A stretch of 57,475 nt of DNA, the filler included, from Basidioascus undulatus (Eukaryota), in NCBI GenBank assembly GCA_000826855.1. It is 3 parts of 3 records of this genome, joined end to end, with 100 filler letters (N's around TTAATTAATTAA, not from the genome) between each part and the next. Parts side by side here need not be neighbours in the genome. Positions count along the whole stretch, not along the records: positions 19,219 to 38,307 come from JTLS01000436.1; 2 more parts are not named here. One strand, written 5' to 3'. This document shows, in pieces, positions 1 to 36,759 of this stretch; position 1 is the first letter of the stretch, and each line of letters opens with the position of its first letter. The notes beneath the pieces were generated by a model that ran no database searches, was not told where the DNA came from, and saw nothing but the letters and a program-made list of their open reading frames with translations. Both the position numbers and the translations under genes were made by a program.

Positions 1-17
1 GAGGGGAGGAAGCGCAC

Positions 18-591: not shown

Positions 592-626
592 GTGTGTCCC
601 CCTCCCCCTCCCCGTGCGTTTGCCAG

Positions 627-13961: not shown

Positions 13962-16900
13962 CTATGCGAGATAACGGTAGGATTTGCGATCCTCGGCACG
14001 CTCAAGATATTCGCGCTACGAAACCAAGCGTGAGTCAGTGCGCACAGTTAAACGTCATGCATAACTCCTCGAGACGCACCTCGATGAGGGCCTCGATACG
14101 CTTCTTGATGATCTGCGGTGAAGGAGCGAAGCGGCCAGCGAGCTGCCGAGTGACTTCGTTGACGAGTTCGTTGTGGTTCATGGCCTTCCGACTCTTCATG
14201 ATGCGGACGATGCAAGCCTGCAATACAAAAACGAGCGTCAATGCCACGCAGCGAACCAGATTGGAAATCGACAGGCGCACCTCGATCTGATGCTTGCGGT
14301 CCTCGTCGACCTTCTCGCGCGTCTCCTTGCGCTCGTCGTTCGACTCGACCTTGCTCGCGATCGTCGCGATCTTAATGCGCGCAAGCGGGGCGGTGAACCC
14401 GCTGTTGAAAGAGAACTCGTCCTCCGCGCCGATGTCGCGACCTCGCGGCTCCTTGAGAAGGATCTTGTACTTTCCGCACGCGAGCGACTGCAGAGTTCGC
14501 TTCAGGTCGTTCTCGGGGATGTCCGTCGCCGATCGAATGTCCTATTCAGCGGCATCGACATGCGTCAGTGATATGGTTATGGGTGCGTTCGAGCGATGGC
14601 GGACAGACCTGATATGAGAGCAGGTCGTTCTCAGGCAGGTCTTCGAAGAGCAGCAGGACAACGAGCGCGTGCGTCGAGACGTTGAGCTCGTGCTTCTTCG
14701 CCTTGAACTGGACCTTAACGTCCGCCGTGCCGTAGCTTGGCTGCCAGACGACGCGACGCCCGGAATGCCGCGCCAGGTAGAAGCGCTCGAACGACTGGCA
14801 CGCATCGATGAGGACGGGTGGGAAGACGCAGGGCGACGAGTTCGCGGTCATCGGCCAGTACGAGGCGGTCAGGACGTTGACGGAGAGATCGATGCCGGCG
14901 TACTGCGAAAACGGCCGAGATAAGCAGCGTGTCACTGCCGCGGACGCGAAGGGAAAGGCTCACATCGGTCTTGGCGATATGACTCTTGTACGCCTTCATC
15001 GTGTCGGCGGATGTTCGCATATCTACCAGACAGCCGAAAGTACAGCGCTTGAGCGGTCAAGATTACCCGCAACACAGCCGCACGCACCGTTGAACATGCC
15101 CTCCATCTTCTGCGTGAACTGCACGCCGCACTCGACCTTGAGCTTGGCGAGCATGCCCCGTTCGGCGTCGTCTGAGACCGAGCGGCCCTGGATGAGGCGG
15201 CGAGCGAGATGGCGCTTATAGAAGACCTCGAAGAGGTCTTTGTCGATGACGAAGCGGAAGAGGGTGATGGTCTGGTCGAGCACGGCGTCCGCCTCGTCCT
15301 CCGTTTTCTGTCGAGTCCGGCAAGAACGTCAGCGCCACGTCGGAGAAAAAGCAGGGTGACCGGTACGTACGCCCTTGAGACCCTTCTTCAGATTCTCGTC
15401 GATGAAGAGCGAGATGTACTCCGGCGACTTGCTATTCAAGTTGACGAACGTTTCGAAGCCCTGAAACGTCCATCATAGATTCAGCGACGCCTCCCCAGCG
15501 AATGCTCGGACGAGCGCACCTCGTTCATCGATGTCTGCATGACCTTGTCGTCCCCAAAGGCGTCCTGCAGAATGCGATCGAACTTCTGCTTGAGATCCAG
15601 CACGTCCTGAACCCACTGGAGCGCGGCGGCCAGCGTTCCCGCAGCCCCACCGCCGCCCGCACCCGCACCAGCGTCCTCCTTCGCCTTTCCCTTCCCTTTC
15701 GCCTTTCCAGAAGGCGCGGGCGCCTCCTTATCGCCGGCCGGAGTCGCCGCGCCGTCTGGCCCGGACGTCGCGCCCGCTCCGCCGGCGTTGATCGTCTTCC
15801 CGCGCTCGAGGATGTCTGCCTTCAGGGCTTTCCGCAGAGTGGGCTGCCCCTCCGGGACGCGATGGAAGAGACGGTAGAGGCGCGCGAGGTCATCGATGCT
15901 GTCGTTGTCGAGCATCGGAGCGAGACCGGATTCGGGGTTGGAGACGATGGTGTCGAGGTGGGCGGTAAGGAGATGGGTTTCGAGGAGGCGGCGGAGAGGG
16001 GCATCGGTGTTGAAGGAGAGGTAGTGGTGCGTCCGAGCTTCCTCGTCTGCTAGTCGCCGCTCGGCCTGTAGCGCTCAGATTAGTCGATGCTGCCCGCAAA
16101 TAAGAGGCGTATGAATGCTACGAACCCGTCGAAGGTAGGTCGGGATGTCACAAGTCTCCAGCAAGCGTTGCGCCTCAGCCTCGTAGTAGCGTGTACTCTC
16201 GGCGAGGATATGCGGCTCGAGGTCGACGGCGTAGACGCTTTTATCCAAAGCGCCCTTGACGCTCGGCTCGACCAGCTCGAGCAGGATGTCGACGCAGCTC
16301 TTGACTGCGGATCGGTTGATGACCTCTCCGTCGCGCTCGAGCCGGATCTGCGTCAGGATCGTGTGGAACAGCTGGGCGCGGATGTCCGAGTCCCGCGCGA
16401 CGACCTCATCGCGGAAGAGGTTCAGGCCGAGATCCCACGTCTGGGGGACAGACGCCGAGGCGGTGTAGACCTTGTCCTGGTACTCCAGCACATCCCGGTA
16501 AGATGCCGTCCCTGCCATCCAACCATCCGCCTCTCCGGCCTGACACAAATTGGTAAACCGAACGCACCATGTACTTCAGGACGTCCCTCAGCTTCTTCAT
16601 GCACGCCGTATGGTCGTCCCAAGCCGCCCTGAGCGCCTTCAAGAACGTCTCTCCCGCCTGCCCCCTCGCCACCGCGTCCATCCCCCCGCTCCCCGCAGCC
16701 GTCGAGCTCGAGCCCGCTGCTCCGACAGCGAGGCTGCCAGCCGGGAAGGCGGGTACGATGTTCTCGCGCGCGAGCTTGTGGAGGTGCTCGGTGACGAGCT
16801 CCTTCACGCCGTTGTACAGCGTGTCGCCGTTCTTGTGGAGGACGAGGTTGTATGCGTAGCGACTGCGGGGACATATTGTAAGCTCGCCGCTGGCGCTGGG

Positions 16901-17281
16901 GCAACAGAACAGACGCACTAGTGCTCTTCGAAGCTCAGCTTCGATGCATTGTGGTTCTGGATCTCCTTGATGGCGAACGCCAGCCGTTGCCATGTATCCG
17001 CGATCGACTTGCTCTGGTCGTTCTGCACGCGCATTGGTCAGACATGAGCGATCTCGACGAGAAGACTGCCTGCCAGGACGCACGCGCTTGGGAGGCTTCT
17101 GCATATATTAACGAGAATTGTGGTCAGACAACAGTCCGGATCAGACAAGAAGACGCGGCGCACGATCTTGGGTTTTCCGGGTGGCCTCCGAGGGCCTCCA
17201 GCTGCCAGGGGGAACCAAAGGCGGATCAGCGAAACCCGTGCTCCCAATGACGAGCGCCTACAGCTCACCCATCATAGACAT
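13962..17281 (-). CDS. CUL3: Cullin-3, multi-exon with 13-nt and 15-nt 5' microexons
   Basis: [97 protein letters not shown], neddylation region [12 protein letters not shown]-terminus [17 protein letters not shown]. Confidence 0.96.
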
Positions 17282-19118
17282 GGTGTGTTGTGCGACCACC
17301 GGCGGTTGTGAGTATTGAAATATAAAAGCGGTTGGCTGCGATGATGGTGATGAAGGTCAGATGGAGATGCGGAGCGGGAGTGTCGGCGGTAAGCAGCGGA
17401 GGCTGAGTTCATTATTCTGAAGCTTGAAGAGTGCGAGTTCAGGACGTTGCTGTTCGCCGCCAAACAGTTGGGAGTCGTTATGAGCATGCTCGCCTGGCAG
17501 GAAAGATTTGTTCAGACCTAGAGTTACTATGTGATTATTTCTCCAGCTTCCAAAATTCCGAAGCAAGCTCCTGAAAGCAATGACTGAGTTTGTGGTGCAG
17601 CTGCAGATGTACGGTGACCGCTCGCACTGCAGGTATTTCGTCCCTTGCTGCGGACATAGTAAGATTCAAAAACCATTGGAAGCCATGGAATGAATTAAAG
17701 GAAAGCCAGAGCATGTTACACCTCCTAGTGCCTCCTGCTCCTTACAGTCTTTGCTATGTGCTGGACCTCCAGCCTCTACCGTGTGCAGCAACTGGACATT
17801 CCCTCTCATCACAGTTTTCCGCAATCTTCCTGTGAGAGGTGCTATTCACAAGGGCTTGAATTTCTCCAAAGGCATACAGGAAGGTATAGGCCTGAGGGAC
17901 TAGGACAGTTCCACCGAGGCCACCTGCATACATTCAGTCCCAGCTCTTGACGGCTTTTGTCTGTCGAATGGAGCACTGCAAGACTACTGAGCGTCGTCAG
18001 TAATAGGGAGTGTCTACCATGTGTGGCGTTTTTTTCAATAATCTTGGAACATACAGCCTGAACAGAGACTGTGCGGCTGTCCTGATGATTGAGGAGACAC
18101 GCCCAAAACTTGCTCTTTCACCCTCGAGCTCACTTTATGAACGCTGAGTCCGAACTGACTGTTGTATGAATGCTGCCACATGATCTCTGAAATCCCAAGT
18201 ATCCTCGATTTCAACAGCAACAGCACCAAATTGCGCATTGTTCGGCTACCGCAACTGCAATGCAGGCATTTGCCAACCTTTCTAACCCGACACGGTCACC
18301 AATGAAATGAAATGAGGGAAGAAGTGAAAATTTCTTTAACGGACGCGAAAGGACGTGTATAGACCTGTACAAGACGATGGGGTGGTGACATCCCAAAGAA
18401 AGCCTTCAACCTTGTGCCCGGTATCACCGTGGTGAGGAGATGCCTATCATAATTCTACCACAGCTCAACCTCGATCCATGCAGCAGAGTACTTCTTTGAC
18501 CCTCCGAGGGTTTCCCTCAAAGTGCTGGCACTTCCTGTCCCTTCGACGCGATGCCAAAATGCAATTCTTCTCCTACAGCGTCGCGGCTTCTCCGACGTAC
18601 GTCTGCTCCAGGAGGCGGCCCGAAAAGCAATATGCCGCTCGGTCCCTGCCCCACCTGCTGCCGATGAAACCAAAGCAAACAAGCTGGTTTCGGATTAACG
18701 AGTAGACCCTCACTAATTTAACGCGACCAGCGGCATGCAGTGGAGGGTGCTTGCGGGCCGCTGCAGAGAAGTCGTGCCCTACGTCCTACTGCATGTGCAA
18801 AATTTCTCCTCGTGCACCTTGCACAGGCGGCACGACACCTTGACACATTTGTAAAAATTGCGAACGGAGTCCTTCCGCTTGAGATCTGCGCAAATGTGCT
18901 GTCCGAGTGCATTCCGCTCGCATTTTCGAAGGGAGCCTTCGCCTACTTCGTCCACTGTAGCTCCCACAGAAGAGCCCACGATAAAAATCCTGAACTATTA
19001 CCAGGCCATGAAAGCTCCCGGACGCAGAAAAGACGAAGCTTGATTCGAACTTTAAGTGGGCGAGGCGGGCGGTCACGTGGACAACGACCCACACGACCGC
19101 GTTTCTCTTGAGACGCTC

Positions 19119-19218
19119 NNNNNNNNNNNNNNNNNNNNNNNNNNNNNNNNNNNNNNNNNNNNTTAATTAATTAANNNNNNNNNNNNNNNNNNNNNNNNNN
19201 NNNNNNNNNNNNNNNNNN
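19119..19218. other. Artificial contig/scaffold spacer (N44-TTAATTAATTAA-N44)
   Basis: Exactly 100 nt; the central 12-mer gives stops in all six frames; identical to the spacer at 38308-38407. Confidence 0.97.
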
Positions 19219-19261
19219 GCAAGCATACACCCCTCCGCCCCGCTCTCTTCTCCCTTCTTGA

Positions 19262-19807
19262 ACCCCGTCCACCATCTCCTTCTCCGACCTCACGTCCCAC
19301 CCCGCCACCCTCGACTCCAACACCCCCCTCATGTCTCTGCTCGAGCGTCTGCGCCACACCGCTGCGCAATCGCACGGCCCCACATTCTCCACCTTCTCCC
19401 CCGGCGGCCCGAAAATCATCCTCGTCTCCCCGCTGGACCCCGCAGGCTACGAGACGACTTCCGCGGGGCAGTTTGTCCGCTCAGGCGACGCAGAGGTCGT
19501 CGTGCGCGCCGTGTCGGTCGGGAACATCCACCGCTCCGTGCCGGGGACGACGCTGTCTGCGGTCGCTGCGGCGGCGGCCATCCCAGGCACGGTCGTGCAT
19601 GAGGTGTTGCCCCCCGAGCGGGATGAGAAGCGCTTCAGGGTTGCGCATCCGGCGGGCACGGCGGAGGCCAGGGCGACGGTGGAGGATGTCCGGAGCGGGG
19701 AGGGGGAAGCCGGCACGGGCGTTGTTGTGAGGGGGATTGAGAGCGTTAGGACGGCGAGGTTGATTATGGACGGGGCGGTTAGCGTTCCGGAGGAGGTGTT
19801 TGAGTGA
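19262..19807 (+). CDS. PrpF-family (methylaconitate/aconitate delta-isomerase-like) protein, C-terminal part; 5' end lost at the gap
   Basis: PKIILVSP, VRAVSVGNIHRSVPGTTLSAVAAAAAIPGTVV, RVAHPAG, VRTARLIMDGAVSVP match the PrpF C-terminal pattern (H..., AA.IPGTV, HP.G, RTAR.LM.G). Confidence 0.85.
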   Translation, partial: TPSTISFSDLTSHPATLDSNTPLMSLLERLRHTAAQSHGPTFSTFSPGGPKIILVSPLDPAGYETTSAGQFVRSGDAEVVVRAVSVGNIHRSVPGTTLSAVAAAAAIPGTVVHEVLPPERDEKRFRVAHPAGTAEARATVEDVRSGEGEAGTGVVVRGIESVRTARLIMDGAVSVPEEVFE

Positions 19808-21697
19808 TGAAGTTTACATACACTGATACACATTGGTACGAAATGCCACTTCCTAATTATCCATGGAGTGATGCCTGCACGACGCACGACGCCCAATCTC
19901 GGGCCAAAATGCCTGCAATACGACTCGACTGGACCTCAATTATGCATCCTTAGACTTGGCTTCCTACGCGCAAACTCTTTCCCTTTTGTATTGGCCATCC
20001 ACTGCTCCGTGGCTGCTGAGCCGCCCGCTCGCAAAGCATTGCCACGGGCTTACTCCTCCCCGTCGCTAGCTATCTTTTTACAGGCAGACACGGCAGACAC
20101 GAAGAACGAATGCCGTCCGATACCCCTTGAACCGTGCTCCAGAACTCAAGCTCGAGAGCTCCGTCCCTGGCGCACTCTGCAGCGCTTACAGGCGTCCGTT
20201 TGACCTTGGCCCCACTGTGCCGGGGATGATTCATCCCTACTAACCTCCCCCCCATTGCCTCAATGCCTGAGCACAATAACCTTCCTATTTGCCCATCGCG
20301 TGCCGTCCGCTATGCTCCCCTCTGTTTCATTTGCTCTCGCAGCGCATGCTGAGCGAGTATAACGCAAGTGACATACGAACACAGGCCTTGCCGGGCATAA
20401 ACATCAGTAGTCGCCTTTAAGATGTATACTCTTATTTATCGTTCTTCCATAAACAGCTAGGTGCAGGAACGTCTTGTCACAAACGGACGATCATTGTCTC
20501 CAGTTCGCCGGGGGGAGACCCCAGGCCTGTGACAAGTTCTTCCTGGACTGCCGCTTCCTCAGAAGCTGGGCTGCTAGAAGTTCAGGAATCGATGTACTTG
20601 AGACCGTGCGTCGTCCACGGGACGCAACGAGTTTGTAGATTAGCCTTCCACTTTCAATTGTATGTCAGACACCCACGCTTTAGTGGTGTGCTGCAGAGGA
20701 AAACAGGGACAACAGGATGCGCACAGATACCTTCCAAGGAGAAGTCCTTGTGAAATTCTGTGGATATCTTCATTGGACCATGTCCGCGATGGTCGTTCAA
20801 TCCTAGTTGGTGATCGTGGTATTTTATGCAGCACAGCTAGCCCATAAGAGGCCTTTCACATCTCACTCGAGGCCTACTCTCCTCGGCCGGTACAGTACAC
20901 GCCGGACTGCCTGCATTAAAATGAGTTGGGTAAAATTCAGATGCAGCACACGCTCGATCTGGTCCCAGGAATGCACTCAGTGCATGGCCGGCAAGGCCGC
21001 GAGCGTTCCCCTCGCATCGTACACCAGTTGCAGGGGTCTGAACTGTTCAAAACATAAGAATGTGTGAAAAGCGGACCGCGCACACTATTGCCTTGGTGTA
21101 AGGGTGCAGACAGTGCAGACGATTCATGTTTACATGTCGCTGCGTGGTACGCAAACCAATTTGAACCTTTCCACTCTCATGCCGTTCGCCGGAGAGACTG
21201 AGTCTCAGGCCAGTACCGTGACCGGAGGGCCTGCAACCAAGTGCGTTCTTTCCCCCGAATCACCCGTTTATTCGGTGAGCGGGTCTCTTAAGCGGAGCCA
21301 GGCTGAAGGTTGATCACGGTCTTACTGAATGGTCAGCGATGGGGGCGCTAGCACAATCGGGTCTATACGGATCCTTGACGAGAAGGTGGCGGGGTCGTTT
21401 GATGGGCGTTCTGCTCTTTATGGGGAGCACATGGCTTGATCTTAAGCACTCAGCATAGAATTCTTCCTTGTTCTGCTACACGCCCGGTGTTCACCAGCGC
21501 GTTCCCTTTTCCTCGGGCGGACGGGCAATGCTGACGGGACTGCGGATGGGTCCGAAGCGACCACTCGTTTCAAGGGCTCGAGCACAAACAAGAATGTTCC
21601 TCCTTCCGGGTTGAAGTCTTCTTAAGTTTGTGGCTCGTGGATGCAGGTTGCACTTCATGCCCGGGCTACTGGCGATAATATGTCTTTCTCATTTCAC

Positions 21698-22030
21698 TCA
21701 TTTCACTTTCACTCGACCCTCACACTGCCCCCAAAAATACCGCATTGTTCTCCATTCAAAGACTTTATGATCCTGGTACATTTTTAGATTCATCAAGTTT
21801 GCCCTTGTAAATGTGGACAAGGCCGAACGTCTCAGATCACCCTTAAGACTGTTGAAGTGGGAGCCACCTATTCGTCCCCTTTGGGCGGACTCTTTTGCAG
21901 TGCTGTACGGCACAGACACCTTTTCACAAGCCTTAAAGCTCATCTCTTCTAGTAGGTATTCTGAGCAAGGTGTGGAGATGCAGCGCACGGCGCAACTGTG
22001 GGCAGTCCTTTTACGTAGCCTCCTAACCAC
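21698..22030 (-). mobile_element. Decayed hAT-like transposase, C-terminal dimerisation-domain remnant
   Basis: VSVPYSTA...QRG...SHFNSLKGDLRRSALSTFTRANLMNLKM...FEW...W resembles the hAT C-terminal pattern P.STA..ERGFS..N.IK..LRN.L....L..LM; surrounding frames are riddled with stops. No TIRs found. Confidence 0.45.
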
Positions 22031-25000
22031 GCGAGTGGGACACCTCTACATTACACAACTGTCTGCGCCAGCCTAGCGAGTGCGCAGACATGCGCTGCAG
22101 GGACAATTTCATACCGTCACCTTAATTTCTCTGAGGTATCTCCCGGCTGGGGCTGTTAAGCATTGGGTAGACAATATGCTGTGTTACTGTGGACGAGGCA
22201 ATTCCCCAACCGCAATGTGATTTCCGGTCGCCCAGTCCGCTCGCTGAAAGGAGCCCAGATCCCAGATTTAGGGTCTCTAACCATGTGGAAACTCCCTTAA
22301 TATCACTGTTCCTCATATCACTGCTCTTAAGCGTCGGAGTCGCGGTGCGTCTGCTTCGCATGTCGACTTCGCTCCTCTGCACTGTCGGACTTATGGGACC
22401 ACCCCTTCTTCATTTGAAGGGTAAGTCTGCAGGAATCTTGATCTACCAAAGGTCTTTAAGAGAGCCCCCATGCACACATAGTGCTAGTCGGTCCAGCTTT
22501 CATCGACCACTGTCAACCATTGTCATGATCAGTCGCTCATGCCCGCGCAGGCGTTCTTCCTCCACATGGCTTTGGGGCTCGTACAAAGGACAAGGTTACT
22601 GCTCTGAGATTTGTCGCACAAGGGGGTCATGTCCGTGTGCTGGAAAACCATGCAAAAGTAGTCATGCGATATTGCAACGTGCCGTCGTCGCTACCTTTGG
22701 CTACCCTAGCCTACGTAGTAACCTTACTTATCAGCAGAAGTACTAGAGTAAGCTGCGTTCGCCTTCCCAACTCCTCCATGCCTGCAACCTAGTAGCCCAC
22801 ATGTCTTCTCCCCAGCGCTCCATCGACCCTAGCCTGCTCTCCCCAACTGAAGGTGGGTAAGCCGTCGTCTGTCTCGTCTTTGACGCTTCTTCCTCCGCGC
22901 GCTGGGCGCGCCTCATCTGCCTCTTCACGCTCAACCAGGCTGTCCTCCGCCCCTAATCTTTGTATCCGACCCGCGCACGTCGGACTACCCCTGAGCCGGC
23001 TTTCCGGACGTGACGCCTGACTTCGCGGGACATTATCAACAAGCTGCAGGAGCTTTTGGGGGAGTATTCGACGCAGACGGCGGGCACGGCCGCCGGTTCG
23101 GACAAGGGGTACCCAATGGTGTACCTTGTGGATGAGACGACGTTAGAGAACTGGGAGAGGAGGGAAGAAGCGTGAGATATGTGAGATTAAAGGTGGTCGA
23201 TTTCAAGGAGCCGGAGGAGGACAAGGATGACGAGGATGAGAGCGAGAACAGCGTAGGTGGGTTCAGCGCAAGTGTAGTTCGACTGAGCTGAACTAAGATC
23301 ACCAGAAACGTGAACTAATCAATCGACCTTCCCCAGCCTGTGTTTCGCTCAAGTACATCATCATCTTTGACGCAAACGTCGACACTGTGTGCTCCGCATC
23401 TCGTTCCTGTGCGCGTATAGCTGCGGTTGGTTGCTAACAGAAGACTTCGTCTGCTCACGTAACAGGGCAACATGGACTATGCAGGATTATTTGAGGCGGA
23501 CGTGTGGGACCGCCGTGGGGGCAGGATCAACCCAGAGGTGGCGAAGGAGGACGCGTGAACTGGACATTTTTAACCCTCTTGCCGTTTCCACTCCAGATGT
23601 AAACTTCCAAATACCATGCACTCCTTGCTGTGTGTGAGCCAGGTACCTATACATCCTGGCAAGAAAGGCGCGGCAAAGCTCCTTTCCTGCGTCCTGGGAA
23701 TCAGGAAAGGAGGCCAACAAAGCTGACTTTCCGTAGCCGGACAGTCACCTAAATCATCGCGCTTTCATACACATTTCCTCTGGGAAAGAGGTTGCAGGTA
23801 GCTTGCCTTCGCATGAAAGTGGCTGCAAAATCGCCTTTCCATAGGACCTGGAAAGTTTTGCAGCGAAGCTCGCTATGGAAACGTACTTTCCTGTTTCTTT
23901 ACAGGGCTTCTACCTCTCATATGCAGCTTTTGGGGACTTTGCTTGACTTTGGCGACAGGGCAAACTTGTGCGCTGGCGTTCATGCGGGTGTCCTAGGACA
24001 GAACTCTGAACTATTGGGGGAGACTTCCGCAGGGCTATGGCAGCCAAAAGTGCGGAAAGCAGCATTGAGTGTGGGCAACATTGACGGAAGGTGCGGACTG
24101 TCCTTTGGGCCATTTGGCAATTTCTGCATGCCCTCTGCCTATTAATGTGCGGACTGCCGCACCATGTGGAACTCCACATGCTGAATCCTGTAGGCCCTGG
24201 TGTTTCCTCATTTTTCCGGGTTCTCAATGCCGACTCCCGCACTGTAACAAAAGAAAAATGGCCAGGTGCATGTCGTGAAGGGCCCTTGACCATGACCGCT
24301 TTTGGCTTTTAGACACCTCGTTCACCTACACAACCATGTCTTAATCAAAGAAATACAATGTTTTTTATGGCTATAGTTCATCTATAACCAGCTTATATTA
24401 GTAGGAAAGGCAGGAAGAGGATAACATGCAAACATTTCAAGGCCAACTGATAGTGTACAATTGAGCATCAGAATTCTTAAAGCGGTAAGGAGCAGTGGTT
24501 CGAAGGGCAGGGCCACGAGGCTTGCCACTACTACTTGTTTAGGTGATAAGAATTCACAGAGCACAGAAGCGTGCTCACTGGCTTCCCAACATTTCACAAG
24601 TCCCCTCAGACCGGCCCTCCAGCAACAAGTCCCATATAATACTGATTTCCAAGCACGCTTGTTCTTTTCCTCTTCCATTTAACTCCCCTCTTCCATCTGT
24701 CGTCCTCCTCCTTTTGTCTAACCTTTCTGCACCTCTCTCATTGTACACATCCTGTCTCTGATCCTGTCATGCTCTGTCTCACGGTGCTCATGATGCCGTC
24801 TCCCGTCCTACCCCCACCCTCACCCCTAACAGGTGCAATCAGCCCATGTTCTGCCAGGTACTTCTAACCTCTCCAGTTTAGATGTGTGCTGATGTTCTTG
24901 ATAACAGTTTGTGTTGGCTATTGGAGATGGTTGTTTTTATAGCAATTCCTGCTCCTCACCACTGAGCCAACTAATAGATGCTTTTGTATGTGTCTACCTT

Positions 25001-26284
25001 GGTTACAATGAGAGTCTTTTTGTATTTGCATAAATATGACAATTGAATCATAGTCACACTTGAAGTGGGTGCATATATGTACTTTGTGTGACAAACAGTA
25101 TGACTGGATTAAAGACTTGGGTGTAATTGCGATGCTGTGCTGTATAAATGTAAGCTGTTTATAGTCCCTTGGTAGGACAATTGCCGCACATGCCCCAGCA
25201 AGAATATGATGATATCAGCATCAAAGGGTGTGCTGACAGCATGGCAAATGTGGCATTCTGCATGCTTCAATAGGCAATAGTGCAGATTTCTAAGGAAGGA
25301 GATATATTGGGGTACGGAACATAGGGAACCCCACATTCACATTGCAAGTAATATGCAGAATTCCCCATGTAGGCAACTGTCAATGCGCGATCAACTGCTT
25401 GCAGAACTCTGCATGTGTGGCCTTCCACAGCCTCCCTACATAAAAGGTGCAAAAAAAGTGCCAATTCCCGCATGGCCTTAAGTTGGGCAAACCCCCATGC
25501 GGAATTCTGCACCCTTGCGGACTTCCACATATCCATAGTTCACAGGGGTATCCTTCTCCCCATCGTGAGTCTCCTGATCTGCATAGCTGACCTTCACTGT
25601 CTGCTCTTTCCACCCTGACCATATTCTTATCACCCGAGGGTTTGGACGAGCTGATACGGTGATTCGAGCATGGACTTTGGCAGGGTTGCAGGAACACGCA
25701 GCCTAGTTGAGAGGACATGCGGTGCACACTATGCCAGGTGCACACTATGCAAGACAATTAGCTAAGCGTTTCGGGGGAGATGGGGCTGAGAATCGCCGTC
25801 TTTCAGATGGACTGTTCTTGCGTAGTTCTTCTTTCGCCACTTCTCGTCCCTCAGCCCCCCGTCTTCAGGAGCTAGGTTGAGGGTGTGCCGGAAAAGGCAG
25901 GGGACCATGAGCGGATAACACAGCCACATGAAACACAACGTTCCTGGGCCTGCATGGACTGGGATCATGTCCAGGGCGATTGAGGCATGTGCGCCCTGGT
26001 GCGACGTAATCATTCGATGAAAGATCGGTAGGCTAATGGGGTGGTGTCCGGGGGCAGCTGCAGAGCGACTTGCAATGATGCACACATACATCCCTACCCT
26101 CCACCCCTTGGCCATACCCCTTTCTCCTTTTACCAAGTTGATTAAAGCCTCCTCACTTCCCAGGCCAGGCCGGCGTGGGTCCAACGTACATAGATCACTT
26201 CACCTCGACCGCAGATGTCTAAAGCCCAAGTTCCCCCTCCCTAGGTCTCCTGCCAGGGGAGTCAGCTGACTATGGCTAGAGATG

Positions 26285-26570
26285 GCCGTGTATCGCATCG
26301 CCGGGATGATGCACGGTCGAACGATCGCAGCGAGTCGAGGCATCGATACCTTAGCGACGTAGAGATGGTACTGGGCCGGTTTGCCAGCAGGAACACCAGC
26401 GGACTGCACTGTGACAGTAAGGCGGTACAGCTCCTTCAGCACTCGGGCCAGGAACTGCTGGTCGTCGTACGAGAAGCTGTTCGCAGCGAACTTCAGACGG
26501 ATGATACAGCACCACCGTCGTCCATGAGCCATACGGCTAGGGCCAGTGGTGGCAGGTAGTCGGCGATCCA
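26285..26570 (-). pseudogene. LAGLIDADG homing endonuclease fragment (LAGLIDADG_2 type, C-terminal half), frameshifted and 5'-truncated
   Basis: WIADYLPPLALAVWLMDDGGAVSS, one-base frameshift, then LKFAANSFSYDDQQFLARVLKELYRLTVTVQSAGVPAGKPAQYHLYVAKVSMPRLAAIVRPCIIPAMRY; matches YLTPLALAIW.MDDG...LKL.TNSF...QY.LY...SM..L..IV.P.I.PSM.Y of organellar intron endonucleases. Confidence 0.85.
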
Positions 26571-26826
26571 ACATCTCAGCAGGCCGTCCAACATCACATC
26601 CAACATGTCAGCACATTGTGCAACATGTCCTCCAACATGTCAGTCAGTGACCCAACATTGTGTACAACATGTGAGCAGGCCGTCCAAACATTATGTCCAA
26701 CATGTCACAGGGACATCCAACACCAACATGTCAGCCAGCGGTCAATATTCTGTCCAACATGTCGGCCAGCAGTCCAACATGTCGTCCAAGATGTCAGCAG
26801 GCCATCCAACATTGCGTCCAACATGC
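26566..26826. repeat. Irregular array of short TCCAACAT(GT) repeats
   Basis: About 13 exact CAACAT cores plus several variants in 260 bp, with recurring TCAGCAGGCC(G/A)TCCAA higher-order units. Confidence 0.85.
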
Positions 26827-27492
26827 TATTTACCGTCCTCTCCTTCGGGCCCAAGCATGCTACAGCCACCTTAACACGTGTGAAAAAGAAGCACCCCACT
26901 TGGCTTGAAACGAGTGTTTCAACCCGTGTTTCCTTAGCTTTTCAAGGAGAATTCACCAGCTGAAATGCCGGTGCCTTTTCCTGGAAAGAAAAATCTAATT
27001 TTACGGTCCCAATTTCTTTCACTGCATCTGCCCTTTGCCTCCATCTCAGCCAAACCACCTTCGAGTTGAAAAGGAGCTTCCTTTCATAGCTCGCTGTGGA
27101 AATTTGTCTCTCATATATTGATAGAAGAGTAAGTGATGGAACTGTGGGTGTGTTGACATGTCGATGCTGAGATTTAAATCGCCTTTGGCATGGCACGGAG
27201 TTGCACGGTGAAAGACTCAACAAGCCATCCATCTTGCCAAGGAATGCAATGAGGCAAAGTGATTTTGGCAAGAAGTTCCTGAACAGTTTGTTCTTCACAA
27301 CATGCTTTTCAAGTTGGACCGCAAGAGGATTAGCGTGCGCTGCGTCAATGATTCGTCGAAAGAAGATAGCACGGCGGTGTTGCAACGACATGGGTAAAGC
27401 GCGGAATATCGAATATAATCAAACGACACGACATTACAGTCCTCTCCGTATTCCTCTCCCGTGCAATACAAGATCCTTGCTCTCCTCCGCCC

Positions 27493-28176
27493 TCACATCT
27501 CGATCCACTCCGCCTGCGCAACAAATCGCACAACCTCCCACGTCCTGCCCCCCTCACACGCCATCTCCTCCAGGAGGCTGAGCAGCCGCCAAGCGTACGC
27601 GGGAGGGTAAGGCTTCAGCGGCAGCTCGAGCTGGAGCATTTCGAGCTGGGCCGGGTGCGCGTCGACAAGCGCGCGCACGAAAAGGAAGACCGCCTCGAGG
27701 TCGCGCGGGGCGGCGCCGGTCAGGCCGACGCGGCAGAGCGCGGGCGGGAGGGAGGGGGGCATGGAGGTGTTGGTGAGAAGGGCGAGGGAGAGATCGAAGG
27801 GGACAATCAGGGTGTGGAGCCGCGTGGGGGCGCAGGAGAGGAGCGCGAGCAGACGGTGCTGCAGGGCGGGGGTGGAGTCGGAAGAGCGCGGCGTGAGGCG
27901 GAGGGACTTGATCAGGTGGAGGTTGGGCGGAAGGAGTGCGAGGACGGGTTGGGTGGGGAGGATGCCGAGCAGCTTCTCGAATGCTGAGAGGGAGGCGAGG
28001 TGGATTGAGGTGTAGAGGGGGGCGGTGGCGAGTGCGCGCCAGTGCGCGTTGACGCGGGCGGCGAGGGCGAGGGAGAGGGCGGGGAGATGGGCGAAGACCT
28101 CGCTTAGGAGCTCGGGGAGAAGGTGCGCGAAGGGTGAGGGTGAGAGCGGCGATTTCGCGGTAGATGAGCTCGACAT
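27493..28176 (-). CDS. F-box-like protein, single exon
   Basis: FAHLLPELLSEVFAHLPALSLALAARVNAHWRALATAPLYTSIHL is an F-box-like motif, followed by Leu-rich segments (IKSLRL, LHTLIV, LEMLQL). Confidence 0.75.
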   Translation of the reverse strand: MSSSSTAKSPLSPSPFAHLLPELLSEVFAHLPALSLALAARVNAHWRALATAPLYTSIHLASLSAFEKLLGILPTQPVLALLPPNLHLIKSLRLTPRSSDSTPALQHRLLALLSCAPTRLHTLIVPFDLSLALLTNTSMPPSLPPALCRVGLTGAAPRDLEAVFLFVRALVDAHPAQLEMLQLELPLKPYPPAYAWRLLSLLEEMACEGGRTWEVVRFVAQAEWIEM

Positions 28177-28613
28177 CTCGCCGGATGAGAAGTGATGGAG
28201 TTGCAAGGAGATGGGAGAAATGAGAAGCATGTCAAGGCATGTGAGAGGCAGAGAAGATATGGCGAAGCGATAAAGAAGATGGCGAAGCCCGTGGATGTCA
28301 GTCTGCCAACTCAACATGCGGAAGGGGCAGGAGCAGTAGGGGCTGGAAGTGTCTCGGTTGAGTGGCGATAGAGACTGGTTTGCTCGAGCAGATAGATGAG
28401 GAGAAATGAATATCGAGCAATATTGTAAGCCAAGCAACATCTGCTTTCGCTTGAAAGGGCGCAAGGTTGCAGTCGTGAAGAATCCGCCCTTGCTTGCCTC
28501 TGGTCAGTGTTTGGGCGCACCGCGCGAATGAAGAGGCCTCTCGATAAGGGAGAGCCAATAGAGCGACGATAAGAAGACGTTCAGAAAGCCTGCTCCTTCA
28601 AAGTCAGCGAGGT

Positions 28614-29585
28614 CTAACTCAAGCTCATCCATCCGTCGATCCGCTCATGACCTACCACCTCCTCCCCCCACTCCTCTACCGTCCGCGCCCTGGACTCCTC
28701 CTCGCCTACCTTTTCCAGAGCACTTCCCTCTCCGGGGGCTCTTCTCCAAACCGCCTCCGCCGCTCCCTCTCCTCCCACAAGCTCCACCAGCCGCACCCCC
28801 GGCCACTCGCGCACCAGCAGGCCCTCCAGCAGCCGGACCACGCCCAGGGGGACCTTCCCCGCGCCCGCCGGCTGTCGAAGCCTGATCCACCTCACCCCAC
28901 TCCTGCCTTCCCCCTCCGCCTGCAGTACGCGCAAGTACGCGTTGAACGGGCATCGTCCATCCTCGAGCGTGAGCTCGAGGCGGGCGACGCGCGCGCCCCC
29001 TTCCAGAACCATCTTCCCTATCTCCGCGTGCGCGAGGCCAGCCATCGTGTACCGGAGTTCCCGAAGCTCGCGAAGCGCCAGGAGCGCAGGGACAATCCCC
29101 TCGTCTTTGCGGAAGGAATGGAGGTGTACCGAGGCCGCGAGGGCGTGCTGCGGTGGTGCGGGAGGTAGGGGGAACGCGTCGATCGTTAGGGACGTGAGGT
29201 GGTTGTATGGTGGAGCGAGGAGCGACAGGAGCGATGTGTAGGTCGTCAAAGAGCCGCGTGTGATGTGCAAGGTGCGGACGTGCGGGGCGAGGTGCGGGTG
29301 GGAGGTGAGCGTGCTCGCCAAGTGCGTGTGTGCGGAGGGAGAGTGTGCATGGAGGTGCCGGTAGAGGAGAGGAGCCGTGACCTGAGAAAGCATAACCACG
29401 CCATACTCAACCTCCAGCTGTACACAGCACAAATGAGAAGACGCAGGGGGACGCACGTCATGAAATTCCCTGCACACCAAGCACACCCTCGCAAGCTCCG
29501 CCGTCCGCGGAGGGAGGAGGTGCGCGAGCTCGAGCAGCACCTGATACAGCAGCTCGGGCGGGAGAGGGAATGCGCCGGTGCCCAT
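28614..29585 (-). CDS. F-box-like protein; one in-frame 75-nt intron (29456-29382)
   Basis: LPPELLYQVLLELA...LARVCLVCREFHD|VTAPLLYRHL...LTSHPHLAPHVRTLHI; intron GTGCGT..CAG. Confidence 0.75.
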   Translation of the reverse strand: MGTGAFPLPPELLYQVLLELAHLLPPRTAELARVCLVCREFHDVRPPASSHLCCVQLEVEYGVVMLSQVTAPLLYRHLHAHSPSAHTHLASTLTSHPHLAPHVRTLHITRGSLTTYTSLLSLLAPPYNHLTSLTIDAFPLPPAPPQHALAASVHLHSFRKDEGIVPALLALRELRELRYTMAGLAHAEIGKMVLEGGARVARLELTLEDGRCPFNAYLRVLQAEGEGRSGVRWIRLRQPAGAGKVPLGVVRLLEGLLVREWPGVRLVELVGGEGAAEAVWRRAPGEGSALEKVGEEESRARTVEEWGEEVVGHERIDGWMSLS

Positions 29586-30265
29586 CAGAAGGAGTAAGTA
29601 AGCAGCGAGGAGAGCTGGGCAACGCAGGAAAGAATGGTGACGGTAGGAGGAAGACGGAGGGCCCGCTCGGAGCCGCTGCCCGCCAACTTAGAGCCAGTCG
29701 CCCAGTCCCCCCCACTCCTGGCCCTTTATCACTCATCTTAATTCCAACGCTGGAGAGACGTTTGTTAAGCATTTTTTCCATTATTTTGACGAGAGCTGCA
29801 TCTAAGTGCAAAATCTTGACAGTGGGTGAATGAGCCGCTGTACATTGAACCCCCGGCCTCATATCGAGTGCAGCATGCACTGAGCGTCTATCCTTACTGG
29901 GGCAGTTTCTTACGTTCACCCTCTTTAAACTCCATCTATAATCTCTGTCAGTCCTGATGTGAGCGTGCGGTCAGACAGGGGTTTGCGGCTGCTCGATCCT
30001 TCTCCTGCGTGCAGGCAAGGCAGGCAGGCGCTCATGAACATGGAGCAATTCGCAGTCACATCCGCTCAATGCAAGCATCCCTCTTCCTGTGCACTCGTCA
30101 ACGAGGTCTAGTCCTTTTACAGAAACACAGAAATGGGGTGTACCTCTATTTTCTCTGTGACTTAAACACTCTGTGTCGGAGCTGGTGCAATGCGTGACCT
30201 ATAAGAACCCAGCGGACTAGCCTCACTTCTTGTCTTCACCATTCTTGCAGCACACTACCCCGCCA

Positions 30266-31645
30266 ACGATACAGGTCATCCGTAAGAAAGCAGCTCTCCT
30301 TCTCCCTCTTCTCCCAGTCCTCGTCACTGCGGTCACTTCCAACTCGAACCGCAGACCTCACGCCTATTAGCGCGGTGCATCCGGCTCGGGAAGACGACGC
30401 GTTACTGTACGTTACTTTGCCCTGCTACAATTGCTTGTCGCCCTAGCTGTTTATCCAGAGCTGAACTCCGAACCTATGGTATATTTTCGTAATAGGGGAC
30501 TGCTGCAAGCCCTCTTGCGCCTGGAGCGGCAAAGCCGACGTTTCGCAGCCGTTCGGCACCTGCGAGGCGTCCGGCGCCGAGCTTACCGGTAAGTTAGTTG
30601 GGTGAAGCTGATCCAACCCAAGCCCAGTTGACGAATAGTTGAATCCAACACCACCAGACCCAGACTTGGCCGATGGCGGAAGTACCTCTGCGTGAAGGCT
30701 TTCTTGGTCCCACTGTGGGCATCTTCGGCTGACTTTGTGCACGACCAGACACGTGCACGGACAACAGCCCGCAGGTCATCTCTGACGAGCGTGAGCTTTG
30801 TTATCCATCCTGAGCTGAAGGAAGCAGGGCTCATGGTCCCGCTGGGCTCAGTCGCCTACGGCTTCGCGGCGGTGAACCTGGTAGGCCACAGTGAGTCCGA
30901 CTGGTGCTGTGTGCGTTGTCCTGCTTCTCCCTCACAATCGACACAACAGATGATGTTGCCCACATCAGTCATGCTACGCTCTCACCTTCACGGACACGTT
31001 AGTCCATGTTTCGACCCGCCTCGCCTCTTCTGAAGAGTGCCCTCCGCTAACAGCTCTGCACAAACCTCAGTGCCGCCGCTGGCCAGACGTTCGTTCTGCA
31101 AGCGAGCAACACCGGTGGTGATCTCTGCTCTAACCAGTTTGACCTCCTGTCAGTTCCCAAACTATAACAAGTCTTCATCCCTCAATTGGACTAACCAAGT
31201 GATCCAGCTGCTCAGTATTCCCGGCGGCGGCCTTGGAATCTTCGATGGATGTAAATCCGAGTTCGGAGTGGACACGTCTAACGTAAAACTCCTGGCCCTT
31301 TTCTTTCTCATTAGGAGGAGAGTAGTTCTAATAGGGCGGTTCACAGTGGGACCAGTAATACGGAGGCTGCAGCGACATCGGGTGCTGCGACAACCTGCCT
31401 TCTGCGTTCCAGGCGGGATGCAAGTTCCGTTTCGGGTGGATGAAGGTGAGTAACTCTTTTATATATCTTTTCCCTTTCATCTCAATACTCATTAATCCTA
31501 GTCACAGGGACCCGACAACCCTTCCGTGACCTTCAGTGCGTCCTGCCTTTTCTTCAGTTCTCCTGCCATCCGCTGACCCTGCAGTGCAGAGGAGGTCCAA
31601 TGCCCCTCGGCGATCACCGACATTTCCGGATGCGCGCGCAACTGA
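30266..31645 (+). pseudogene. GH45 endoglucanase, apparently inactivated
   Basis: KTTRY|WDCCKPSCAWSGKA, VAYGFAAV, SESDWCC, QASNTGGDL, IPGGGLGIFDGC, GCKFRFGWMK, DNP, VQCPSAITDISGCAR. Defects: ACG in place of the start codon at 30266, frameshifts in exon 1, in-frame TAA at 31356-31358 (WDQ*YGG). Confidence 0.85.
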
Positions 31646-32287
31646 GGGATTCCACCCTCCACGGTCCGCCAGCAGCCGGCCTGCTTTCAATTTTCGATAC
31701 AAATACAGCGAACAATTCCTTCAGTGCTTTGCTCCGTGCAATGTCTAGTCTGATTTCGGTTCGGTTGAGCCTGATGTCTTCTCATGGTGCACCTGAGCGT
31801 GAAGAGATCCAGCTTCGGATTTGGCCTGTTCAAAGCGCATTTTAGTAGTCCTCCTTACACTGTTAGGCCAAGTTGGACTTCCCGTGAGGGTATGAGAGAA
31901 GGAGTGTCCTCTACACCTTTCAGAGGAGGAAGGCGAAGTACAAAGCTTTCCCGTGTCGCCCTGCCACAGGCAGCACTGGCCAGCCCTGATAGGAATCTGT
32001 TTGTCGCAACACAAAACTGCTCACAGGAAAAAAATCCGTGCTCTGTTGCAAAGTAATGAAGAGTAGCAGGTTCACAGTACCAGTCCAGCCGCTGACCACC
32101 TCAAAGTCCACAGTCCCGACCACTCAGACTCGGAACTCTCACGCATCCAGAGTCATACGAGGCATTGACGTGCAGGCCAATCCGAGTGAAATCCCCGAAG
32201 CACACCCACTAGCCTCACAACCAAGCTTGCATCGTGTAAGCGGGAAATCCGGCATCCCGGACAATCCGGCGTCCTCGCACCGCCCGC

Positions 32288-33749
32288 TCAAGCCCCAATC
32301 TTCTCCTCCAAAACCCGCTCACTGAGCTCCCACAGCTCGCGTGCGAGCTCCGGATCCCGGGCGTACGCGCTGGGAGTCGCCTGCTGTGCGTAAGGTACGA
32401 GGTAGGCGCCTCTGCAAATCGCACAGTCCCCGTCAGAGTTGACGATACAGGTTGGGGGAGGGAGGGGGGTAGGAAGACACACTGCAGCCCTTTCTCCAGC
32501 ACCTCCGGACTCGTCGCTGCGTACAGGGACGTAACCGCCCCCTCGGCGGGGGTGACGAACAGTGCGTTGAAGACAGGTCGCGCGAGCGGGTAGAACAGGT
32601 TGCGGGAGACGTGCTGGTAGAGGTCTGCGGTGAGCCGGTGTAAGAGAGGGGGAGGGGGAGATGGGAAGGAGGAAGGGACGAGGTTGGGGGTGGAAGACGG
32701 ACCGGTGCGGACTACGCCGGGGTGCACGGAGAGGCACGTGAGGCCTTGCGAGCGATGACGGAGGTCTGGGGGAAGAGAACCATAATATTAATCAAGCGCT
32801 GCGAGAAGGCAAGACGCAGTAAAACAGGCGCACCTAGTTCTGCAGTGAACAACACGTTCGCCAACTTAGACACCGCTGCCCCGTCAAACCGCTCATCAGC
32901 GTCCCTCTCCCCCTCCGAGCTCCCGCCCCTTCACCAACACCAGCCTTAAACATGCGCGCACTATATCGCCTCCCGGGCCCCATGCCCGTCCAGTCCGGCC
33001 CCAGCGCTACGTTGAAGTCCGCCGTCTCCCGAAAGCGTGGGCGGAACGGCCAGCACACGCCCAGGTGGGCGAGCGAGCTGAGGGACACGATGCGCACGTC
33101 GTGTGTCTCTGAGGCGGTGCGGAGGAGGAGCGGGAGGAGCGTCTGGATGAAAAGGAAGTGCGCGAGGTGGTTCGTTTGCAATTGGGTCTCGAGGCCGTCC
33201 TGCGGGTGAGAAGGGTGGGGGTGAGAAAGACGCTGAGGAGGGGGAGAAGAGGAGAGAAGAGAAGACGCACCTCGGTGAGCGTGTACGGCATAGCCATAAC
33301 TCCGGCATTGCACACTTCCTCCTTCCATCAAATCAGCCTTCCTCTTCCTCACCTCTCCACCCAACCACCAACGCACCGACGATATCCAACCTCTCCTCCC
33401 TCTCCAGAACCCCCCGCGCAGCCTCCCTTACAGCTCTCAAGCTACTCAAGTCCAGCCGCACCCACTCGACCTCCAGCTCCGCCCCCTCGCCAGCGTCCTC
33501 GCGCAGCTGCTCAATCGCAGCCTGCGCCTTCGACTCGGACCGCGCGGCGAGGAGGACTCGGGCGCCGGCGCGCGCGAGGTGCCGGACTGTTTCGAGGCCG
33601 ATGCCGGTGCTGCTTGCGGGTAGAGAGGTAAGTGGGAAGTGGGAATGCGAATGCGAGAGAGGAGGAGGGACGCGCTTTCCTCCTGTGACGAGCGCGACTT
33701 TGCCCTTCAGCGACGAGGCGGGGAGGGCGGTGAGCGGGTCCCAGGGCAT
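32288..33749 (-). CDS. Short-chain dehydrogenase/reductase, retinol dehydrogenase/WWOX-like, multi-exon
   Basis: LKGKVALVTG..TGIGLETVRHLARAGARVLLAARS, LDLSSL, CNAGVMA, DGLETQLQTNHLAHF, RIVSLSS, Y.VSKLANVLF (YxxxK), SVHPGVVRT, EGAVTSLYAATSPE, LARELWELSE. Confidence 0.93.
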
Positions 33750-34232
33750 CGTTTGATCGATCGAGTCAATGTTTGGGCTCCAAGTGTGAGCCTCGGTGAG
33801 TGGGAAGAGGGAGGGTGCGTTGGAGAGCGTTATGACCTCGGAGAGCACCGAGCGGAAGGCGGTTTTGGCCAAGCGTCATCGAGAACCCCACGGGACGTGG
33901 GCACGGGCGGCGGTAAGTATCCGCCTGGTTCTCTTCGCGCTGGAGACGTCGCAGTTGCGCCGCCTTGAGCAGACTTCTTTGGGAGATCTCACAGACGGGT
34001 CAGCTACGAATCGTCGGGAGGAGAGCAGGAAGGTCCTCATGAGGAAGAAAAGAAGACCTTCGCGTCAGGAACCGGAGGCGATCGAGCTTATCAAGCAATA
34101 TTAATGGAGACGACGATTAATGGAGACGACGTCATAATCCGCTCGCCCTCCATCTCTTTGCCACCAACCACAACCACCCTCCCAACTTAGCCACCATAGC
34201 CCTCTTGTCTACCCACACCCAGACGAACAACC

Positions 34233-34677
34233 ATGTCCCACTACACCCCCACCTCCCAGCGCCTCTCCCAAGCGCAGTCGCAATCTCCAAACCCTACTAC
34301 GGCACCGACGTTCTACCCGCCCTCCGCTGAGCCCGCCCCGACCGTCGCCTCCTCCGCAACCAGCACCACCAACGCGCCCCTAGGCATCGCGGCCGCGCCG
34401 GAGGGCGGGGTGGCGGTCGGCGGCCAGTCAGGGCTGCCGATGGGCCATGCGGGGCTGGTTGATAAGGTGGTGGGAGGGATCGACCAGGTGCGTGCTCCGC
34501 TTTTCCCCATCCGGTGTCTTGAAATTGCAATGGGGATTGGGACTGATATAAAGGGCTGTGGGGAGACAGGCGCTCGGGCATCTGACGAGCAGCAAGGAGG
34601 GTGTGGAGAGCGGGAAGCTCCGCGCCGCGGGCGGGAAGGAGGCCCAGCTGGGGGAGGCGAGGGCGCCGCATGCGTGA
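34233..34677 (+). CDS. Small hydrophilic CsbD-like protein; exons 34233-34487, 34570-34677
   Basis: ...LVDKVVGGIDQ|ALGHLTSSKEGVESGKLRAAGGK resembles CsbD-like D.V.G.....G...G..R motifs; canonical intron GTGCGT..CTGAT..CAG. Confidence 0.6.
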
Positions 34678-34924
34678 TTGGTCGAACACGGCACGGAGAC
34701 TGTTACATAGACGGACGCATCTGTTTATTGATATTGACGATCCGAGACTAGTGAAAGTGTGCGCGCGTGTGCAGATCCGAAGGTGCGGAGCAGCATTTGT
34801 GGATGCGTGGATGTGTGTGAATACAGTATGCTTGATTGAGATGCTCCAAAACGATGCCCGAGAGAAATGGAGAGAAAGAAAGAAGTACAACACGCTCCCC
34901 CCTCCATGCTATCCGATGCATCCC

Positions 34925-36184
34925 TCACGCTTCCCCCGCCGCCGCGCCCTGCTCCTTCGCCTCCTCCCACCAACCCCACTCGCGCACGCGCACCCCCCGC
35001 TCGGGGCTGACGAACTTGACGTACGCGCGGGGGCGCGCACAGTCCCACGTGCCCACGAGGTTGTGGGAGGGATCCTCGACTTCGAAGGTTTGGAGTGTGG
35101 GGTGGGCGGTGACAACTGTCTTATTGGGGGTGGGGATCAGTCACAGGGCTGGGAGAGCGAAGAGGGAGAGAGGGAGAATGGGGGACGGACGTGTGTTGAA
35201 GCGCTGATTTGGGGAGAAGGCCGGAAAAGTTAGGAGGCGCTGGGAAAAGTAAGGTGGGTGAGAGGGACAACAGCGCACCTCGACATGGTACCCCCTCACC
35301 GGGCTCCCCTCGTCGCTCCAGTGTGTAACCCTCAGCCGCTTCACCCGTAGGGTCGGCAGACACTTCAGCAGATGCCCCCAGCCGCACTCGATCCTCAGAT
35401 TCTCAAGCCCCTGCGGAGCGCGCACGATCCGCTCCAACCACGGTGCCGCGGCGACGGGGTGCTCGACGTCCTTCGCGTCCGTCTCGAAGCTCAGATCGAG
35501 TGTCCGCAGCGCCTTCATCTCCTCGAGGGGCGGGGGGAAAGCCGCGAGGACGCTGGAGGGCTTGAGGACGGGGGGGAAGGCGAGGTGCAGCGTGAGGGAA
35601 GTCAGGTGTGGGGAGGTTGAGAGGGTCGAGAGGATGTAGAGGAGCGCGGAGGACGCCGCGCCGCGCGTGGGGTAGTCCGGCGCTGGCGTGAGCGAGAGGG
35701 AGAGGACGGAGCGCGCGAGGTGCGGCCGGGATTTGAGGAGGCGCCGGAGGGAGAGGAGGTGCGATTCGGAGCGTGCGGAGACGCGCCGGAAGAGGAGGGG
35801 GAGCGCGACCTGCCCGTCCATCCACACCATCCACACGCGTCAGTTACTCCGTCGTACTCAGACCAAATCTCACAGGAGGAGGAGGGGCACCATAGCACGC
35901 ACCTCGTAGAAGTGCCTGCTCACAACCAAGCACTCCCTCAGCGTCCGCCGCCCCTCCGCATCCCCCGCATCCGCATGATGCACCAGCACAGCATGCAGAA
36001 TCTCCGTGGGCAACCTCGGGAACGGCCGGTGCTGGTACCCTACGCCTCCCCGCGCGCTGCTCCTACGCGCGCGCGTGGAGGGCGTCGGCGAGGGCGGGGA
36101 AGAGAGGATGGGGGTTGTGGGTGCGCGGCCGAAGCCTTCGGGCGTGTGCGAGGCGGAGGAGGAGGGGGGCGCGTGGCGGGGCAT
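34925..36184 (-). CDS. F-box-like protein, multi-exon
   Basis: FPRLPTEILHAVL...TLRECLVVSRHFYE|VALPLLFRRV...LLKSRPHLARSVLSLSL, LTSLTL, LRTLDL, LENLRI; last exon ends ...EWGWWEEAKEQGAAAGEA*. Confidence 0.72.
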
Positions 36185-36759
36185 TGTGTGCGTGGTGTAG
36201 GGTAGGGTGCGATAGGGGGAGAGAGAAGGAGAAGGAGGAGGAAGGAAAGAAAGAGAGACGCGTGAGGCAAGGCAAAGTGAAAGTCAAAAGTCAAAGGAAG
36301 GAGTTGGACGCGGGACGCGTCGCGCGTGAGGGGTCCGAGCTCGGGTCGTGAGATGTTAAATGACCTGCGGGTACATGGCACACGACCTCAGCCACATCAA
36401 GTACCACAGGGCAGTTGACTTTCCATTTCGAAGGATTTCCATGGAGACTTGATCCACATCTCCATTCAGCAAAGGGGACAGAAAGGAGAAAGGAGCGCAA
36501 GCACAGCCGCTGCCATGTTGCCACATCACAACGCGCCAAACAAGCATTTGCGCTGCCTTCCCTTTTGACGTAATAGCGGAACATTACGGAAGCATTACGA
36601 ATCCCTGCAGCTCGCTACGAGCCCCGCCAGGTAGGCGCGGTTTTAGCTCTGGTGCACCCCCCATCATCCTCCGGCAGCCTCTCTCCACTCCTCTCGCACA
36701 CTCATTCCCCACGGCGACCTCTGCAAGTTCGTGTAATTCGTCCTTTCCCTTCCAATCCG

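Follow-up and report, generated by a model that had tools for sequence, protein, structure and literature searches.

A broken LAGLIDADG_2 endonuclease fragment in nuclear DNA of Basidioascus undulatus, probably derived from a GC-rich mitochondrial cob_429-type intron

Results

The nuclear DNA of Basidioascus undulatus contains a real, single-looking and non-functional relic of a cob_429-type intron endonuclease, which we consider most probably (at a probability of roughly 0.6) to be a dead NUMT from a GC-rich mitochondrial cob_429-type group I-D intron. The object is ordinary in kind, as stray mitochondrial pieces are common, and unusual in composition, with a G+C content far above that of its known relatives.

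Identity, extent and breaks of the endonuclease fragment

The window, by which we mean the whole stretch of 57,475 nt that was analysed, filler included, consists of three contigs (1-19118, 19219-38307 and 38408-57475) separated by runs of N (19119-19218 and 38308-38407) with a central word that gives a stop in all frames; neighbours across a spacer are not real. The fragment lies on the middle contig, which it shares with F-box, PrpF and short-chain dehydrogenase genes and a methyltransferase exon, a nuclear setting. The methyltransferase exon had 14 matches at about 50% identity, and the named ones were basidiomycete (Rhizoctonia, Ceratobasidium and Microbotryum); we take the host to be a basidiomycete that lacks close relatives in the collection searched.

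The fragment comprises the C-terminal 93 codons of a LAGLIDADG_2 endonuclease on the minus strand (26567-26290), split by a 1-nt deletion and free of in-frame stops in the 95 codons checked; six-frame translation gives IADYLPPLALAVWLMDDGGAVSS in one minus-strand frame and LKFAANSF...PAMRY in another. The first piece (26499-26567, minus strand, 23 codons) carries the second LAGLIDADG helix, LALAVWLMDDG, and matched positions 95-117 of the 168-position Pfam model PF03161 (22.7 bits, E 1e-4). Two bases (26497-26498) then stand in place of a Gly codon of the relatives, in a column that is 92% Gly across 120 relatives. The second piece (26290-26496, minus strand, 69 codons) ends with the terminal M-x-Y motif of the family and matched model positions 119-168 (19.7 bits, E 9e-4). 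Either piece alone scores below the PF03161 cut-off of 25 bits, and the two are contiguous in the model. The ESM Atlas assignment was likewise LAGLIDADG_2, and a PDB sequence search returned no relative. An earlier sequence-only reading, which had described a LAGLIDADG_2-type C-terminal half with one frameshift, was thus right on both counts.

That reading had also placed the 5' end of the coding sequence at the start of a repeat array, and the searches agree: TBLASTN matches of relatives mostly begin at 26567, with a few at 26555-26576, and 26567 is also the first base of the array as delimited by TRF. No trace of the first half of the enzyme (model positions 1-94) was found anywhere in the window. 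In each of two DNA runs a single contig spans both junctions with no differences, indicating that the arrangement is not an assembly join, with the reservation that both runs may be the window's own source. No contig of an RNA-like run (X3) covered the fragment, which says nothing about expression. Because the fragment has no start, no first LAGLIDADG half and no ribozyme core and is frameshifted, no working enzyme is possible.

Relatives of the fragment

A search of 1.84 billion representative sequences returned 39 matches to the second piece at E<=0.001, the best 55% identical, and a profile search returned 303, with a best identity of 57% among the matches listed. All of the 120 matches listed (of 303) contain PF03161 and 29 are fused to cytochrome b; the named ones include intron ORFs of Serendipita, Cyathus and Moniliophthora. 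When 24 relatives were scanned against Pfam, LAGLIDADG_2 was the best match in every one and the sole match in 22. We also compiled 79 metagenome loci from the best 80 of 508 relatives, a set that may omit GC-rich members, its ranking having been made against another protein. In 38 of the 79 the cob exon end S-x-W-G lies in frame upstream, 66 have a group I core motif downstream of the ORF, and in several cob resumes at A-T-V-I-T behind the intron. The intron position is after cob codon 143 (G143), and the intron is of the yeast bI2 type. Introns at cob_429 are classed as group I-D in PMC7595605. Among the matches listed, the closest relatives (<=57% identity) are thus encoded within group I-D introns at the cob_429 site of fungal mitochondria, which narrows the general mitochondrial group I type first proposed.

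A quick tree, built on 89 columns and leaving 51 of 104 inner branches open, placed the fragment among mitochondrial sequences, with no supported sister or subgroup. A word-based search with the second piece alone scored none of 119 candidates, and close-relative scans with that piece confirmed none of 466 metagenome and none of 17 viral stretches. Two relatives had features of their own. One (P0003), a 486-aa protein encoded on 46-kb contigs, has a long N-terminal extension before LAGLIDADG_2, in which Pfam finds only that domain; another (L098:800-1200), a cob_429 intron on a mitochondrial contig of 43% G+C, has its post-ORF motif separated from the core by long GC-rich hairpin insertions.

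Intron remains behind the ORF

The fragment retains a short motif that cob_429-type introns carry behind their ORF. ATAGTY follows the last Tyr codon at a distance of 10-60 nt, upstream of the ribozyme core, in 28 of 35 distinct tails of close relatives, compared with 2.0 expected. Here ATAGTC (26268-26273, minus strand) lies 16 nt after the last Tyr codon, compared with 20 nt in the closest loci (window shuffle p=0.006), and the word is not enriched across the window (17 seen, 19.8 expected). A TAG two bases ahead of ATAGTC is out of frame with the ORF. Among 10 introns no consistent site emerged as a pairing partner for the motif. The word earlier likened to the group I S element is a genuine and meaningful signal; it does not represent the P7 'S' strand of an intron that survives here.

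A profile of the catalytic core P3-P8 built from 22 relatives, which recovered 5 of 5 held-out loci at E<=3e-28, detected no core in the contig at E<=50, and neither did a looser initial profile of the downstream region; no core motif was found near the fragment, and Rfam models on 24000-28000 gave no group I match, just a weak snoRNA match (E 1.2). The group I intron models put forward for this region thus found nothing to recognize. TBLASTX of the window against the 79 loci matched 26200-26600 only, with neither flanking cob exons nor any other mitochondrial sequence in the window. Since the ribozyme core is gone and the post-ORF motif is kept, the intron-derived piece spans approximately 26268-26567.

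A perfect 12-bp palindrome (26260-26271), read directly from the sequence, overlaps the last intron-like bases and is possibly, as a guess, a fold-back repair scar at the 3' junction. The CTCCC...GGGAG hairpin suggested nearby has both of its arms (26237-26241 and 26257-26261); of 200 shuffled versions of the region, 195 fold better, and the hairpin was rejected.

Composition and codon usage

Overall G+C of the fragment is 59%, ordinary for a window that ranges from about 0.48 to 0.65 per kb and high only against the mitochondrial relatives. CpG observed/expected is 1.09 in the fragment, compared with 0.40 in the array and 0.26 at 24600-25500, and the neighbours range from 0.26 to 0.58. The proposed contrast between a GC- and CpG-rich fragment and a CpG-poor relic beside it thus stands for CpG and lapses for G+C.

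By codon position, G+C is 65/45/69% in the fragment, whereas third-position G+C (GC3) in the 79 metagenome relatives (from the best 80 of 508) ranges from 6 to 32% with a median of 12%. Identity to the 12 best loci at codon positions 1/2/3 is 0.51-0.68, 0.69-0.73 and 0.18-0.30, compared with 0.58, 0.74 and 0.51 for 957 locus pairs of like protein identity; positions 1 and 2 are as conserved as among mitochondrial pairs, while third positions are at chance level. Third-position changes run almost wholly from A/T to G/C: against one locus (L136), 33 of 51 conserved residues have a G/C-ending codon here and an A/T-ending codon there, with none in the opposite direction.

This pattern bears on the simplest account, an ordinary AT-rich NUMT that acquired its composition by neutral nuclear drift. 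The fragment is broken and lies among repeats, as such an account would have it; however, changes are concentrated at third positions only, and in simulations of neutral decay under 12 settings, with 2000 replicates each, not one replicate combined GC3>=0.65 and protein identity>=0.45, and at most 19% were stop-free. The codon-position pattern and the simulation lead us to reject neutral drift of an AT-rich NUMT, barring a codon-position-specific mutational process, and we regard it as highly improbable. Given the conservation at positions 1 and 2, the GC-shifted third positions and the failure of neutral drift, we conclude that, until it was broken, the ORF evolved in a GC-rich genome and purifying selection acted on it there.

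Comparison with host nuclear usage (875 codons from seven frames picked by homology or open frame) gave a mixed result. At twofold sites the fragment has 21 of 22 NNC codons and 8 of 9 AAG/CAG/GAG codons, no different from host nuclear genes (NNY p=0.13). In contrast, fourfold sites are G/C in 30 of 57 cases (53%) compared with 84% in the host (p=1.4e-7), Arg is CGA in 4 of 5 cases compared with 4 of 76 (p=2e-4), and Leu is preferentially CTG where the host prefers CTC. Arg encoded solely by CGN also occurs in some mitochondrial relatives (L093, L098, L108 and L139), and the Trp codon of the fragment is TGG. As the CpGs of the fragment are intact, later decay does not explain the gap from host usage at fourfold and Arg codons. 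Even fourfold usage together with C-ending twofold codons would be the pattern expected of a mitochondrion at roughly 50% G+C.

These data also bear on the possibility that the fragment is the relic of a once-working nuclear gene, in which an intron ORF moved to the nucleus and was selected there long enough to shift its codons. Its GC3 of 69% falls between that of the mitochondrial relatives (median 12%) and that of host exons (82-86%), its twofold codon choice is host-like, and its protein is the most GC-shifted of 171 relatives, with a GARP minus FYMINK value of +0.10 compared with a best of +0.03 and a median of -0.19 among relatives. It also departs from 13 of 48 conserved columns, compared with 0-12 for 120 relatives, consistent with a long independent history. 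However, fourfold sites and Arg and Leu choice differ strongly from the host with CpG intact, the intron motif that follows the stop has been retained, the 120 matches listed and the 39 representatives include no relative of nuclear type or with another fusion, and the window contains no 5' half. We therefore consider such a gene unlikely. Its product, in that unlikely event, would have been an imported maturase splicing the mitochondrial cob intron in trans, or a nuclease that was selfish or rode a nuclear element; on the same improbable course, the 5' half would have been destroyed when the array region replaced it.

A GC-rich donor outside the mitochondrion, be it a virus, a plasmid or another resident with a cob_429-like intron ORF, could likewise have left a dead insertion with codon usage unlike both the host nucleus and the sampled mitochondria. 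LAGLIDADG_2 relatives do occur on viral-collection contigs, and some are GC-rich (L078, GC3 0.70; L080, 0.65). Nevertheless, the viral-collection relatives are more distant, reaching only about 35% identity at best over the full fragment compared with 55-57% for mitochondrial ones, those that are GC-rich score lowest to middling, and the kept motif belongs to mitochondrial introns. This origin seems to us quite doubtful on the donor scans made, which covered metagenome and viral-collection contigs.

The repeat array and the surrounding tract

The array CCAACATG that abuts the 5' break of the ORF is a degenerate minisatellite in which CCAACAT units of ~20 and ~12 nt alternate (26567-26825, plus strand; TRF score 174, period 32 nt, 8.3 copies, 68% matches) and belongs to a dispersed family. 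It holds 13 of the window's 28 plus-strand CAACAT words. All CAACAT words are on one strand. The array core CCAACATGTCAG is two G-to-A changes short of a perfect 12-bp palindrome with two CpGs, the second of which is retained in one unit, and the array may be a putative decayed protein-binding repeat of some element.

The sequence-only reading had offered, as its alternative to a NUMT, an endonuclease captured by a DNA transposon, that is, cargo of a multi-copy nuclear element ending in the CCAACATG array. In its favour, the ORF meets the array to the base, the array family is present on other contigs, and the surroundings are repeat-rich and CpG-depleted. Pieces of the array do recur on other contigs (26567-26611 with 8 differences in 45, 26772-26825 with 9 in 54), but the loose ends listed, for part of the 23 pieces shown of 32, continue into more array, the endonuclease was not seen with them, and sequence to the right of 26825 is not common to the two listed contigs matching 26772-26825. 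Over 26208-26474, depth at 80% likeness in both DNA runs is that of the locus's own contig alone, in a table that sums all pieces, draws copy number from public-run contigs and would miss copies less than 80% alike. No transposase domain was found by Pfam at 19800-27500 (12 read-through frames and 51 open segments), no target-site duplication was seen around the array by direct reading, and no clear inverted ends were found; no array unit turned up in viral contigs. CpG is intact in the ORF and depleted in the array. A multi-copy element carrying the endonuclease is thus not supported, and we judge it very unlikely; this is no disproof, because contigs show presence and not absence. The array is a dispersed repeat adjoining the fragment, and nothing shows that it carries the fragment.

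On its other side the fragment borders a CpG-depleted non-coding relic (24000-26260), defined by its CpG profile and having no transposon Pfam match. Dispersed repeats at 24007-24143, 24621-24830 and 22891-22939 are about 84-88% identical to sequences on other contigs. The GCGGA-rich patches within 24110-24180 and 25460-25530 look similar but are no more alike than shuffled sequences, and this candidate was dropped. At 22938-23565, the run X3 (marked DNA, RNA-like) shows GT..AG joints (23252-23306, 23273-23337 and 23386-23466), indicating a small spliced gene that has no Pfam match. Within 8 kb on the minus strand lie two F-box-like genes and one further open frame of similarly leucine-rich composition (27496-28176, 28617-29684 and 35144-35836), the last of which has no Pfam match. 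Elsewhere in the window, 42210-42345 is an exact two-copy 67-bp tandem duplication.

Discussion

Origin of the fragment

Derivation from a GC-rich mitochondrial intron, one of the origins first proposed, is supported by the relatives, the kept motif and the codon pattern, and, taken with the kept intron motif, the simplest origin is a GC-rich mitochondrial donor. The non-coding ATAGTY in particular argues for a NUMT, since its loss would be expected in a nuclear gene that had existed long enough for third positions to become saturated. The family, breakpoints, kept motif, lost core and codon pattern are features of the DNA itself, and from them we infer the following donor, mode of insertion and order of events. 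About 300 bp (26268-26567) would derive from the 3' half of a cob_429 maturase/homing-endonuclease ORF plus the first intron motif behind it. As part of a working intron, the donor ORF would have experienced long-lasting purifying selection in a strongly G+C-biased genome, most simply a GC-rich mitochondrion, whether in this fungal lineage or in a different fungus. End-joining repair would then probably have linked the piece to a dispersed minisatellite within intergenic DNA rich in repeats, and a frameshift and a few substitutions would have followed the insertion.

Several observations count against this origin. GC-rich fungal mitogenomes are rare, with 23 of 949 at 40% G+C or more (PMC8767329), and G+C is 27-40% across 19 basidiomycete yeasts and kin (PMC10064765). 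The twofold sites are host-like and Trp is TGG. The motif argument depends on six bases (p=0.006), the window holds no other mitochondrial sequence, and the tree gives no supported subgroup. Nor did a donor come to light: no relative exceeded 57% identity among the matches listed, and none of the 79 loci exceeded 32% GC3. The near-identical mitochondrial match that would have marked an ordinary NUMT was not seen; neither DNA run yielded a mitochondrial contig matching the fragment at 80% likeness, in contigs that cannot show absence.

Comparison with known systems

The fragment resembles the cob_429 group I-D intron ORFs in Pfam family, C-terminal motifs, identity (45-57%) and the post-ORF ATAGTY, but unlike them it is nuclear, 5'-truncated and frameshifted, has neither cob exon nor ribozyme core, and has a GC3 of 69% where theirs is 6-32%. 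A yeast example of a mitochondrial intron piece in the nucleus is the subtelomeric bI4 intron fragment. Like the fungal NUMTs in PMC7202290, the fragment is a short, broken, organelle-type sequence in nuclear intergenic DNA beside repeats; in contrast to them, it had no matching mitochondrial sequence among the contigs seen for this organism, and its composition is unlike that of the sampled mitochondrial introns. A precedent for the composition is the mitogenome of Candida subhashii, whose G+C by codon position of 53/39/66 (PMC3162594, Table 2) is close to the 65/45/69 found here, although this species is an ascomycete yeast while the present host looks basidiomycete; the G+C range is also given in PMC8672057.

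Intact nuclear-encoded LAGLIDADG proteins include plant OTP51 and the yeast HO and WHO elements, the yeast ones being intein-derived. They share with the fragment a LAGLIDADG coding sequence in a nuclear genome, but theirs are intact genes, whereas the fragment is a remnant of a broken intron ORF and shows no sign of a targeting or PPR part.

Implications

As an object the fragment is dead, and its value is that of a fossil of its donor. Were it instead the relic of a nuclear gene, it would document that a group I intron maturase had moved naturally into the nucleus, and intact copies would survive in relatives within this poorly sampled basidiomycete lineage; in a thin check of literature titles, none described such a move in fungi. 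If the fragment is a NUMT from a GC-rich mitochondrial intron, as we consider most probable, it predicts a mitogenome near the top of the fungal G+C range, either in this little-sampled basidiomycete lineage or in a fungus that it met.
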